Shown in pieces: positions 28,176-28,527 of a DNA stretch of 64,000 nucleotides. The notes beneath the pieces were generated by a model. It was given only the letters and a program-made list of their open reading frames with translations. It did no database searches and was not told the DNA's origin. Source of the stretch: TPA_inf: Saccharomyces (lineage: Eukaryota). The DNA lies in the NCBI GenBank assembly GCA_000146045.2, contig BK006938.2:608001-672000 (forward strand), read 5' to 3'. Numbering within the stretch: the stretch's first letter is position 1; each line of letters starts with the position of its first letter. The position numbers and the translations under genes are program-made.

Positions 28176-28527
28176 ATTTCATATAGGATGTGATGATGTG
28201 TATCACCCGGCACGGCTCTACCCCGCCCTGTGGGGTGTGGAGAAAACGCCGCGCAGAGCCTTGAGTAGGAAGGGGCTGGGTTCTCCCCTTCCTGCCGGGG
28301 TCCGCCCGGCGCCAAGAGTAAGAGAGCGAAGCCGGAGACGTAATATGAAAAAAATTTTGAGGGGAAAGGGCGTCCGCAAGGGCAAGGGCAAGGGGAAGGG
28401 GTGGCGTTTTGTGCTTCAAGGAATTATATTTCGTTGTTTTCCGCACTATGGCGGCATTGTGGCAAGTAACTACTTTACGGAGAAAGACTAGAAAATGGTT
28501 ACAACTGCCACTATTACCGCTTCGCAT
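28117..28527 (-). CDS. YDR095C-like dubious ORF (136 aa) spanning the GC-rich island
   Basis: An ORF created by the GC-rich, stop-poor island; probably not coding. Confidence 0.15.
28200..28410. other. GC-rich structured island with perfect hairpins, a canonical G4 motif and 5 STRE cores
   Basis: GC-rich by direct reading against AT-rich flanks. Contains a 9-bp perfect hairpin aggaagggg-N9-ccccttcct at 28267-28293, a gccggg/cccggc hairpin at 28294-28310, and GGGCAAGGGCAAGGGGAAGGGG at 28380-28401. Confidence 0.6.

Follow-up and report, generated by a model that had tools for sequence, protein, structure and literature searches.

A conserved GC-rich island between DNF2 and GIS1 is probably a distal multi-factor regulatory region of Saccharomyces

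What is a GC-rich island of ∼230 bp doing in the spacer between DNF2 and GIS1? Within the window analyzed here (the whole 64-kb stretch of DNA, whose own coordinates are used throughout), positions 28198 to 28407 have the highest GC content of any 210-bp stretch (62.4% versus 37.1%, top 0.02%), and the second-highest is the 3′ end of DNF2. The island as a whole, which we place at 28200 to 28425, consists of a 5′ half rich in hairpins and a G-rich 3′ block that is ultra-conserved, and its sense strand has a GC skew of +0.19 to +0.33. According to the list of open reading frames, the DNF2 stop codon ends at 28120 and the ATG of GIS1 lies at 29139. The island thus starts ∼80 bp 3′ of DNF2 and sits 730 to 940 bp upstream of the GIS1 start, just as a first-pass annotation of this DNA had placed it. 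That annotation had also described hairpins, a G-quadruplex (G4) motif, and five STRE cores within a GC-rich island, all of which proved to be present and correctly located.

The five STRE cores (28271, 28285, 28360, 28391, and 28397) span 130 bp and form the densest STRE cluster in the 64 kb, where the mean is 0.8 per kb; the sole canonical G4 motif of the window falls within the island as well. As a null model for these motifs, we used 2,000 dinucleotide shuffles of the island's own composition. Both the number of STRE cores (5 versus 1.84 expected, P = 0.02) and the longest perfect hairpin stem (9 versus 5.6, P = 0.012) exceeded the shuffles, with P values of 0.11 for the presence of a G4 motif and 0.27 for the count of CCGG (4 versus 2.7; positions 28207, 28295, 28306, and 28332). 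Since most motifs are only modestly unusual once the island's composition is taken into account, we regard composition and conservation as the primary anomaly and the motifs as secondary. The hairpins and the G4 motif, previously put forward as the salient features of this DNA, are by the same comparison largely an effect of composition.

To follow the island across species, we aligned seven Saccharomyces genomes, namely S. cerevisiae, two S. paradoxus-like genomes, S. mikatae, S. kudriavzevii, S. arboricola, and an S. eubayanus-type genome. The locus of the latter was reached through a search with MSH6, a search with the DNF2 C-terminus having given fragments and paralogue-level matches. With the gene order DNF2-GIS1-MSH6 and the orthologues confirmed at the compared loci, each of the seven genomes proved to carry the island in the same place, at a GC content of 57 to 64%. 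Invariant columns make up 56% of the whole island, 86% of the G-rich block (G-block; 28354 to 28425), and 37% of the rest of the spacer, and pairwise identity in the G-block reaches 94 to 97%, as compared to 76 to 91% in the adjacent coding sequence of DNF2. The hairpin half, with 33% invariant columns, is at background; here the GC content has been maintained while the sequence has changed. The sensu stricto alignment that had been suggested as a check bears out the conservation of the G-runs and the G-block. Counted per species, the island carries 4 to 5 STREs, 4 to 8 Mig1-type sites, and 2 to 5 CCGG, in contrast with 0 to 1 such sites in outgroup spacers; three of the STREs are invariant or nearly so across the seven species.

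Beyond the genus, we saw no island in the corresponding spacers of Nakaseomyces bracarensis and Zygosaccharomyces rouxii, nor upstream of the paralogue RPH1. Zygosaccharomyces carries a single GIS1/RPH1 gene with no island upstream, and in Naumovozyma dairenensis GIS1 is missing from this position. The absence from Nakaseomyces and Zygosaccharomyces shows that GIS1 can, as a rule, be regulated without the island. The outside comparison also covered two contigs with a GIS1 82% identical, both ending 585 bp upstream of the gene and thus short of the island, and one contig from a GC-rich genome (56%) that is not alignable. A second copy of the G-block was not present in the 64-kb window, and a metagenome scan with an exact 23-nt pattern of the G-block returned three matches, all of them S. 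cerevisiae copies of this same locus.

The 5′ half contains three hairpins, HP1 to HP3, and in each of them two GGGG/CCCC site cores face one another as an inverted pair. HP1 (28217 to 28245) is an imperfect palindrome, CTCTACCCCGC...GTGGGGTGTGGAG, with the hairpin CCCCGCCCTGTGGGG beginning at 28221, and amounts to an inverted pair of Mig1-type (C/G)(C/T)GGGG boxes. Mig1 needs an AT-rich flank, which the Mig1-type boxes of the island do not have. The palindrome is strong in both S. paradoxus-like genomes (z = −6.3 in one and −8.0 in the other), moderate in S. cerevisiae and S. kudriavzevii, and missing from S. arboricola and the S. eubayanus-type genome. Its outer stem varies in a compensatory manner (CTCTAC/GTAGAG, CTATAC/GTATAG, CCGTAC/GTACGG). 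HP2, a perfect 9-bp inverted repeat (AGGAAGGGG/CCCCTTCCT, 28267 to 28275 and 28285 to 28293), is made of two inverted STRE cores; its 5′ arm AAGGGG is retained in six of the seven species and its 3′ arm is variable, with a (CCCCA)n insertion at HP2 in S. arboricola. HP3 (28294 to 28312), the palindrome GCCGGGG(tccg)CCCGGCGC, contains inverted CCGG/CGG half sites and a perfect stem GCCGGG/CCCGGC at 28294 to 28299 and 28305 to 28310. The HP3 palindrome persists in each of the seven species (z = −2.0 to −5.9); its loop measures 4 to 6 nt, its CGG-to-CCG spacing is 7 or 8, and S. kudriavzevii shows a compensatory change from G-C to A-T. Altogether, the seven sequences compared, too small a sample for statistics, yield three compensatory pair changes in HP1, among close relatives, and one in HP3. 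Upkeep of a palindrome at the DNA level would be expected to leave the same pattern as RNA pairing.

Several shorter elements accompany these hairpins. An invariant heptamer, ACGCCGC, occupies 28246 to 28252, and an invariant 14-mer, CCCGGCGCCAAGAG (28305 to 28318), holds a CCGG, the palindrome GGCGCC, and a GCCAAG core. GCCAAG occurs once per species in all seven genomes, and we take it to be a candidate site for a Rim101/PacC-type factor. Other candidate sites, namely Reb1-like TCACCCGG, RRPE AAAAATTTT, B-box-like GGTTCTCCCC, Adr1-like GTGGAG, and the half-CRE ACGTAA, were dropped as they are not conserved in the alignment. A further site, GCGAAGCCGGAG (28326 to 28337), is kept in five of the seven species; its CCGGAG resembles the core CCCGGA of the Gsm1/Rds2/Ert1 sites of FBP1 and HAP4, and Gsm1 binding requires a CCGG core (PMC10954478). 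The Mig1 consensus used above, as well as the definition of the STRE as AGGGG, recognized by Msn2, Msn4, Gis1, and Rph1, is that of PMC2631581.

Between the hairpins and the G-rich sequence lies an A7T4 tract, GAAAAAAATTTTG (28344 to 28358), which is A-rich and then T-rich in all species. The tract may serve to exclude nucleosomes. It is followed on the plus strand by an invariant run of 14 nt, TGAGGGGAAAGGGC (28358 to 28371), with the STRE core at 28360, and then by an array of 4.2 GCAAGG hexamers (plus strand, 28376 to 28401; span assigned by TRF, 28376 to 28400) with the STRE cores at 28391 and 28397. The array contains invariant runs of 15 and 8 nt and is longer by one GCAAGG unit in S. 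arboricola and in the S. eubayanus-type genome. Within it, a regular-expression match gives the canonical G4 motif GGGCAAGGGCAAGGGGAAGGGG (28380 to 28401, plus strand). G4Hunter scores peak at 2.08 at 28380, and an energy model with RNA parameters predicts a three-tetrad quadruplex (MFE −30.8 versus −16.5 kcal/mol). A plus-strand G4 motif is present in all seven species, each of which retains at least four G-runs. Directly downstream comes the invariant 22-mer TGGCGTTTTGTGCTTCAAGGAA (28402 to 28423), which exceeds every other invariant run in the DNF2-GIS1 spacer in length; its minus strand, GCACAAAA, presumably resembles the core of a middle sporulation element. Near-total invariance over ∼70 bp, G4 loops included, is more than sites of 5 to 6 bp would need, and must reflect overlapping or further factors or some other constraint.

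Is the island bound in the cell? Published ChIP-seq places an Msn2 peak at chrIV 636220 to 636520 (sacCer2), that is, ∼28220 to 28527 of the window, and an Msn4 peak at 635870 to 636470, or ∼27870 to 28477 (PMC5634782); the offset of 607,993 to 608,000 was derived from the entry for this G4 in the catalogue of Capra 2010 and is accurate to ∼10 bp. Both peaks, which the first-pass annotation had proposed to look for, fall on the island, and the center of the Msn2 peak (∼28370 to 28377) is within the G-block. In the same study, YDR093W to YDR096W are flagged as Msn2+/Msn4+, while the neighbors YDR092W and YDR097C are unflagged. Other signals are filed under YDR095C, a dubious ORF of 136 aa on the minus strand (28117 to 28527), which serves as the label for the island in genome-wide studies. 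Indeed, "YDR095C" is among the selected ChIP-chip targets of Rds2 and Gsm1 in ethanol (Table 1 of PMC10954478), with log2 enrichments of 4.4 and 4.5, respectively, or ∼21-fold, as compared to 4.1 and 4.4 for FBP1; when the partner gene is deleted, these values drop to 2.2 and 2.1. Hence, Msn2, Msn4, Rds2, and Gsm1 occupy the island in vivo according to published ChIP, at a resolution of 50 to 300 bp (array smoothing of 100 to 300 bp for Rds2 and Gsm1) that does not assign binding to single motifs. The zinc-cluster proteins Rds2 and Gsm1 constitute a second class of factors, one that the earlier annotation had missed.

Expression data for GIS1 give a mixed picture. In the msn2 msn4 mutant, GIS1 (YDR096W) was scored as "No change" under the authors' DESeq criteria (PMC5634782), and Msn2/4 binding may therefore be nonfunctional or redundant. 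Over the wild-type metabolic cycle, GIS1 mRNA swings ∼18-fold, from 8.5 to 150 FPKM, and its range in msn2 msn4 is narrower, at 34 to 85 FPKM in samples whose time points are unmatched (PMC5634782); the narrower range is only suggestive of a dependence on Msn2/4. Thus, of the distal stress enhancer for GIS1 that had been envisaged, Msn2/4 occupancy and conserved STREs stand, but the "No change" score speaks against it. Our literature search returned no study of the GIS1 promoter, no reporter or deletion data for GIS1, and nothing specific to this locus.

Taken together, we consider the island to be probably a distal multi-factor upstream regulatory region, which would most plausibly serve GIS1 (29139 to 31823, plus strand), the gene to which position and orientation point. 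Dense short G-run motifs on both strands, flanking the A/T tract, would form a landing pad for several factors: AGGGG for Msn2 and Msn4 and, by specificity, also for C2H2 fingers of the Gis1/Rph1 type; (C/G)(C/T)GGGG for Mig1-type proteins; and CCGG/CGG triplets for the zinc-cluster proteins Rds2 and Gsm1. These factors would occupy the island upon glucose exhaustion, or while the metabolic cycle is in its quiescent-like phase, and the occupied island would in turn activate or tune GIS1, which follows it on the same strand, from a distance of 730 to 940 bp upstream. The invariant 22-mer and 14-mer may be read by further sequence-specific factors. With G-run sites packed in both orientations, the hairpins and the G4 motif, like the GC-richness itself, would mainly be by-products, in that inverted pairs of sites yield palindromes and tandem AAGGG(G/C) units yield a G4 motif; a regional GC-enriching bias, seen at synonymous sites of DNF2, probably adds to the GC-richness. 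The island is thus most likely an ordinary though unusually dense control element rather than a new kind of element.

Two known classes of upstream element resemble such a region. Like the UAS formed by clusters of STREs in promoters of the general stress response, the island has several AGGGG/CCCCT cores in both orientations and is occupied in vivo by Msn2 and Msn4 when nutrients are limited; its STREs also occur together with Mig1-type boxes, as reported for glucose-repressed promoters (PMC2631581). Unlike these, however, it lies unusually far from the ATG, is embedded in a block of 62% GC with ∼70 bp of near-total invariance, and has a neighbor whose expression is not scored as Msn2/4 dependent. 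The putative target is itself an STRE/PDS-binding factor, so that a feed-forward or autoregulatory loop would result. The second class comprises the Rds2/Gsm1/Ert1 sites of the gluconeogenic promoters FBP1, PCK1, and HAP4, with which the island shares a ChIP-chip enrichment of the size seen at FBP1, the interdependence of Rds2 and Gsm1, and CCGG and CCGGAG cores; the distal site of HAP4, at −855 to −822, is similarly far upstream (PMC10954478). In contrast with these sites, no CSRE was recognized in the island, the signal carries the name of a dubious ORF and not that of GIS1, and its CCGG, candidate sites at most, lie in a conserved palindrome with a variable spacing of 7 to 8 bp.

The product of GIS1 regulates the post-diauxic and quiescence program, yet the control of its own transcription is nearly absent from the literature. 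Strong Msn2/Msn4 and Rds2/Gsm1 signals, filed under a dubious ORF, converge on one conserved element upstream of this gene, and this suggests that stress and gluconeogenic regulators are linked to GIS1 in a feed-forward manner. GIS1 might in addition regulate itself, because Gis1 and Rph1 read the same AGGGG core.

A different reading, related to the G4 or replication-pausing element envisaged earlier and in our view unlikely, is that the G4 structure itself is under selection, a promoter G4 on the non-template strand keeping the DNA nucleosome free, recruiting G4-binding proteins or helicases, or pausing the polymerase. The canonical motif with its high G4Hunter score and predicted quadruplex would fit, as would the retention of the G-runs in 7/7 species, where additional units are tolerated only in phase. 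Moreover, yeast G4 motifs are better conserved than their flanks and associated with promoters (Capra 2010), and this one is catalogued in Dataset S1 of that study (chr04 636353 to 636394 W) as promoter associated and, like others there, is kept across sensu stricto species; it is, however, outside the 34-member Dataset S2, even though we find it in all seven genomes. What weighs against selection for structure is that invariance extends as fully to the loops (CAA, CAA, AA) and to 22 nt of non-G flank as it does to the G-runs. A generic G4 needs neither, and this pattern points to readout of the sequence rather than of structure alone. The motif is also not rare at this composition, as seen in the shuffles above. 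Two changes, one in the S. eubayanus-type genome (GGGG to GGGA) and one a variant within S. cerevisiae (28391 A>T), fall at STRE positions and not at ones critical to a G4, but carry little weight either way. The island also offers a clean natural test case for "G4 structure" versus "G-rich factor sites" as the source of conservation in promoters.

Might the island instead act on DNF2? In mammals, G-rich pause or terminator elements of the MAZ type follow the poly(A) sites where genes lie in tandem. To our knowledge, termination in yeast normally proceeds without such elements. The island is like them in being G-rich on the non-template strand and in lying between a terminator, which it closely follows, and the next promoter, and unlike them in being bound by activators. 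An element for termination or insulation, in which G-rich non-template DNA, bound factors, or both would stop read-through from DNF2 and so protect the GIS1 promoter, appears improbable to us. It would account for a location just beyond a conserved block of the TATGTA/TATATA type (28142 to 28178) that follows the DNF2 stop, for the G-rich sense strand, and for a poly(A)+ density that is near zero over 28117 to 28527 with the DNF2 3′ end well covered. In a miltefosine screen, deletion of YDR095C phenocopies dnf2, and the region thus bears on DNF2 output; yet the deletion also takes the DNF2 stop codon and the terminator block and is for that reason uninformative about the island itself. Furthermore, generic pausing has no need of invariance at the sequence level, and the near-match to a Reb1 site at 28200 to 28209 is not conserved. 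Equally improbable is a more specific proposal in which the G-block would be a genus-specific cis-element acting through a defined structure of DNA or nascent RNA (the GCAAGG-repeat quadruplex plus the fixed 22-mer), to be read by a structure- or sequence-specific factor that would couple DNF2 termination to nutrient-dependent activation of GIS1, with the palindromes kept as cruciform- or hairpin-capable DNA.

It had also been suggested that the island works as RNA, either as an extended, structured 3′ UTR of DNF2 or as an ncRNA, and with three consecutive hairpins, an RNA G-quadruplex, and the few compensatory changes in HP1 and HP3 this idea merited attention; the A-rich block at 28344 to 28352 could even be a downstream poly(A) signal. 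On folding, the hairpin half indeed beat its shuffles in four genomes, those of S. cerevisiae and S. mikatae and the two S. paradoxus-like ones, with z between −2.4 and −4.5. Yet it did not in S. kudriavzevii, S. arboricola, and the S. eubayanus-type genome (z = +0.6 to −1.5), and the whole island, folded on both strands as had been recommended, was no better than shuffles (z = −0.43 and −0.72). The excess stability of the hairpin half is equal on both strands, without G-U asymmetry, and limited to one clade, as expected for an arrangement of DNA sites and not for an RNA. A cmscan of 27500 to 29500 against Rfam (E ≤ 10) gave chance matches only, none scoring above 22 bits where the gathering score of the best match is 41, and a tRNA scan found none within 9 kb of the island. 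YDR095C reaches 0 to 2.9 FPKM in 18 poly(A)+ RNA-seq samples, a library type that reports on stable, polyadenylated RNA. We presume libraries of this type to be unstranded. With its best-conserved part kept by sequence rather than by covariation, a function as RNA seems very improbable. A protein-coding gene or coding relic can be rejected: YDR095C has no Pfam family at E ≤ 1, its ORF is not conserved in one of the S. paradoxus-like genomes (Spar2), S. mikatae, S. kudriavzevii, or S. arboricola and differs in the other (Spar1) and in the S. eubayanus-type genome, and its frame is broken by 2- and 4-nt indels in the alignment. This agrees with the earlier view of the ORF as an artifact of GC-rich sequence.

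Least credible, in our estimation, is that the GC-richness is wholly a neutral by-product of GC-biased gene conversion near a recombination hotspot, without any function. The GC3 of DNF2 does rise from ∼0.3–0.4 to 0.48–0.54 over the last 1.2 kb toward the island, the runner-up in GC content within the 64 kb is that same 3′ end, the hairpin half preserves GC and not sequence, and G4 motifs associate with meiotic DSB sites (Capra 2010); but GC3 does not rise in the 5′ coding region of GIS1, and the 86% invariance of the G-block, the invariant 14-mer, and ChIP occupancy by four factors would be left unexplained. A mitochondrial GC-cluster insertion (NUMT) is unlikely for an island that is syntenic, conserved in seven species, and marked by a G-strand-biased repeat. 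As a partial explanation, and for the 5′ half only, gene conversion is acceptable.

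The base composition, inverted repeats and motifs that the first-pass annotation had reported between DNF2 and GIS1 proved exact on direct reading. The ORF listing places DNF2 at 23282-28117 (ending at 28120 with its stop codon), the dubious ORF YDR095C (136 aa) at 28117-28527 on the minus strand, and the start of GIS1 at 29139. With 62.4% G+C versus 37.1% for the whole 64 kb, the stretch 28198-28407 ranks first by G+C among 210-bp windows (top 0.02%). The GC-rich island carries the sole canonical G-quadruplex (G4) motif of the 64-kb window (28380-28401), the window's densest cluster of STRE cores (five, 28271-28397), a perfect 9-bp inverted repeat (28267-28275/28285-28293), a 6-bp inverted repeat (28294-28299/28305-28310) and 4.2 copies of GCAAGG detected by TRF (28376-28400). 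Compared with shuffles of the island that kept its dinucleotide content, both the STRE cores (5 versus 1.84 expected, P = 0.02) and the longest stem (9 versus 5.6, P = 0.012) stood out; the presence of a G4 motif (P = 0.11) and the CCGG count (P = 0.27) are what such sequence yields by itself. Composition accounts for most features of the island, and what has to be explained is therefore the composition itself and its maintenance.

A GIS1 protein search, traced to the encoding contigs, provided five orthologous loci, namely two S. paradoxus-like (90% and 88% protein identity), S. mikatae, S. kudriavzevii and S. arboricola; an MSH6 search added the S. eubayanus-type chromosome of S. pastorianus, giving an alignment of seven genomes including S. 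cerevisiae. DNF2-GIS1-MSH6 synteny and the ~1-kb spacer are kept in all Saccharomyces loci compared, and the GC-rich island sits at the same position in 7/7 genomes, with STRE, Mig1-type and CCGG counts all maintained in each species. The DNF2-GIS1 spacer of Nakaseomyces bracarensis has 25% G+C and zero STRE, Mig1-type or CCGG sites, no island was found upstream of the single GIS1/RPH1 gene of Zygosaccharomyces rouxii, GIS1 is absent from this place in Naumovozyma dairenensis, and the promoter of the S. cerevisiae paralogue RPH1 (34% G+C) lacks similarity to the island. Because it is missing from the outgroups examined and from the RPH1 promoter, the island is specific to the genus Saccharomyces and to GIS1. 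Two additional contigs from Logan assemblies, whose GIS1 is 82% identical, both end ~580 bp upstream of GIS1, short of the island; as they come from different runs, short-read assemblies may break at the GC-rich palindromic stretch.

Conservation of the hairpins and G-runs, which the first-pass annotation had left to alignment, held for one part of the island. The G-block (28354-28425) has 86% invariant columns and segment 28305-28337 has 70%, whereas the hairpin half (28200-28304), at 33%, does not exceed the remaining spacer (37%). Of the five longest stretches of invariant columns anywhere between DNF2 and GIS1, the island holds four: TGGCGTTTTGTGCTTCAAGGAA (22 nt), AAGGGCAAGGGCAAG (15 nt), TGAGGGGAAAGGGC (14 nt) and CCCGGCGCCAAGAG (14 nt). 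Pairwise identity to S. cerevisiae is 94-97% in the G-block versus 76-91% in the adjacent DNF2 coding sequence, and one additional hexamer unit is present in S. arboricola and the S. eubayanus-type genome. Judged from this alignment, the G-block is under purifying selection as a sequence, G4 loops and non-G flank included, and the invariance of the 22-mer and a 14-mer implies putative additional readers. As leads only, we take GCCAAG to be a match to the Rim101/PacC consensus and CACAAAA to be an Ndt80/Sum1 match. Four polymorphisms within the island (28201, 28237, 28347 and 28391) distinguish S. cerevisiae copies. Position 28237, in the 3′ arm of hairpin HP1 (28217-28245), is G in the window and A in three other copies, while 28391 A>T, seen in one copy, removes a STRE core and retains the G4 motif, making it a natural separation-of-function variant.

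The third-position G+C of DNF2 climbs steadily from about 0.3-0.4 (~0.29-0.38) at its 5′ end to 0.48-0.54 in the last 1.2 kb, beside the island; the 3′ end of DNF2 is also the second-ranked GC window of the 64 kb, and GIS1 shows no comparable trend. The rise points to a bias that enriches G+C regionally and may reflect gene conversion close to a hotspot. A process of this kind, e.g., biased gene conversion at a nearby promoter hotspot, probably adds to the G+C of the hairpin half; it cannot account for the invariant blocks.

Published data show binding by Msn2, Msn4, Rds2 and Gsm1. Kuang et al. 2017 (PMC5634782) list Msn2 sites at chrIV 635870-636020 and 636220-636520 and an Msn4 site at 635870-636470 (sacCer2), and their gene table flags YDR093W, YDR094W, YDR095C and YDR096W as Msn2 and Msn4 positive, with flanking YDR092W and YDR097C negative for both. 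The window-to-chromosome offset (~607,993-608,000) was derived from the G4 entry at chr04 636353-636394 (W, sacCer1) in the full list of Capra et al. 2010 (Dataset S1); this entry corresponds to the G-runs at window 28361-28401. With this offset, the Msn2 peak covers ~28220-28527, its center inside the G-block. The second Msn2 site (27870-28027) falls in the GC-rich C-terminal coding region of DNF2, close to an AAGGGG core at ~27861-27866, and the left portion of the Msn4 site likewise lies in the GC-rich 3′ end of that ORF. Among the selected ethanol targets of Rds2 and Gsm1 is "YDR095C, dubious ORF" (Paez Martinez et al. 2023, PMC10954478), with log2 enrichments of 4.4 and 4.5 (~21-fold, similar to FBP1) that drop to 2.2 and 2.1 in the reciprocal deletions. 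The same study found CCGG indispensable for Gsm1 binding and CCCGGA to be the core common to FBP1 and HAP4. Within the island, CCGG occurs at 28207, 28295, 28306 and 28332, the second and third within a conserved palindrome and the last within a conserved GCCGGAG. Mig1-type sites follow the consensus of Westholm et al. 2008 (PMC2631581), according to whom AGGGG is recognized by Msn2, Msn4, Gis1 and Rph1, and Mig1 boxes and STREs are found together in promoters.

We conclude that the island most likely works as an upstream regulatory region for several factors: Msn2, Msn4, Rds2 and Gsm1 bind there in the published data, and it would regulate GIS1 from upstream. We infer GIS1 to be the gene served because it lies next downstream in the same orientation, because the island sits 3′ of DNF2, and because HAP4 has sites of this factor family at a similar distance (-855 to -822; PMC10954478). 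The stress-enhancer role for GIS1 suggested in the first pass thus gains Msn2/4 occupancy in ChIP-seq, but not dependence on these factors, since GIS1 was scored "No change" in msn2 msn4 by the authors, its mRNA cycling between 8.5 and 150 FPKM in the wild type versus 34-85 in the mutant (PMC5634782). Redundancy of the zinc-cluster factors with Msn2/4 is plausible. The pieces themselves (G4 motif, Msn2/4 peaks, Rds2/Gsm1 target) are already catalogued genome-wide; we found no study in the literature linking them or addressing the GIS1 promoter. As a regulatory region it belongs to a known kind, of which it is a well-conserved further example.

That selection acts on G4 structure itself seems unlikely: a quadruplex is predicted (G4Hunter 2.08) and the motif is retained in all species aligned, but this leaves the invariant loops and flank unexplained. 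The motif is not among the 34 conserved across sensu stricto species in Dataset S2 of Capra et al. 2010 despite its conservation in 7/7 genomes here, probably because older draft assemblies lacked this region. Dataset S1 also has a C-strand G4 motif at chr04 635671-635750 (window ~27678-27757). G4Hunter peaks in the window at GGGTGTAGGGGGGCGGGGGTATAG (46868-46890; score 2.16), intergenic between ORFs 45607-46428 (+) and 47686-49467 (-) and missed by the canonical G4 regex because it has just three G-runs.

Also improbable, in our estimate, is a terminator that would pause or block polymerase between DNF2 and GIS1, which lie in tandem. The geometry is compatible and poly(A)+ reads are almost absent over 28117-28527, but the ydr095c deletion, miltefosine resistant and recovered alongside dnf2 (PMC8496327), is uninformative on the island, since it also takes out the DNF2 stop codon and a conserved terminator-like block (28142-28178). 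The resistance it confers probably acts through DNF2; another hit of that screen was MSH6 (YDR097C), two genes off (PMC8496327). YDR095C itself is an artefact, as first proposed, because ORFs across the island change strand and frame between species and match no Pfam family.

A structured 3′ UTR or ncRNA, also proposed initially, is disfavored by whole-island folding that does not outdo shuffled sequence (z -0.43 and -0.72), a strand-symmetric fold signal, zero Rfam matches at the island and the near-zero poly(A)+ coverage; no tRNA was found there either. Folded as 117-140 nt and scored against dinucleotide shuffles, the hairpin half gave z values between -2.4 and -4.5 in four genomes (S. cerevisiae, both S. 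paradoxus-like ones and S. mikatae) and between +0.6 and -1.5 in the other three (S. kudriavzevii, S. arboricola and S. eubayanus-type), identical between strands. HP3 (28294-28312; GCCGGG...CCCGGC) is palindromic in 7/7 species with a loop of 4-6 nt, HP2 (28267-28293) is of moderate strength, and HP1 ranges from very strong in the S. paradoxus-like genomes to missing in the two most distant species. Compensatory changes in HP1 (CTCTAC/GTAGAG, CTATAC/GTATAG, CCGTAC/GTACGG) and in the HP3 arms (GGGG/CCCC in most genomes, GGGA/TCCC in S. kudriavzevii) have zero statistical power with seven sequences, and DNA-level palindrome maintenance would look alike. Every hairpin consists of G-run hexamers paired in inverted orientation, as ACCCCGC/G(C/T)GGGGT (Mig1-type), AAGGGG/CCCCTT (STRE) or CCGGGG/CCCCGG (CCGG core). 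In S. arboricola, a C-rich (CCCCA)n-like insertion in the HP2 loop, GACCCCCACCCCACCCCACCCCCCACC, yields a minus-strand G4 motif missing in most other species.

From the alignment, the whole 1 kb of the GIS1 promoter is unusually constrained. Between island and GIS1, strongly conserved blocks lie at 28539-28550, 28762-28777, 28810-28850 and 29035-29080, with no variation at all in ACAGGTCCCTTG (12 nt) or TTCTACGCATATCGGG (16 nt). Another conserved block contains ATTTACGTTTA (28558-28568), a perfect fit to the 11-bp ARS consensus WTTTAYRTTTW; other species have ATTTGCGTTTA, with one mismatch, and the fit survives 28564 G>A, a variant within S. cerevisiae. The same interval holds a C-rich tract, CCTCCCCCCTCCTCCTCCCGCC (G4Hunter -1.92), and a TATA-like block, TTGTTGGGCGTTTAAAAAGTA, lies ~90 bp ahead of the GIS1 ATG.
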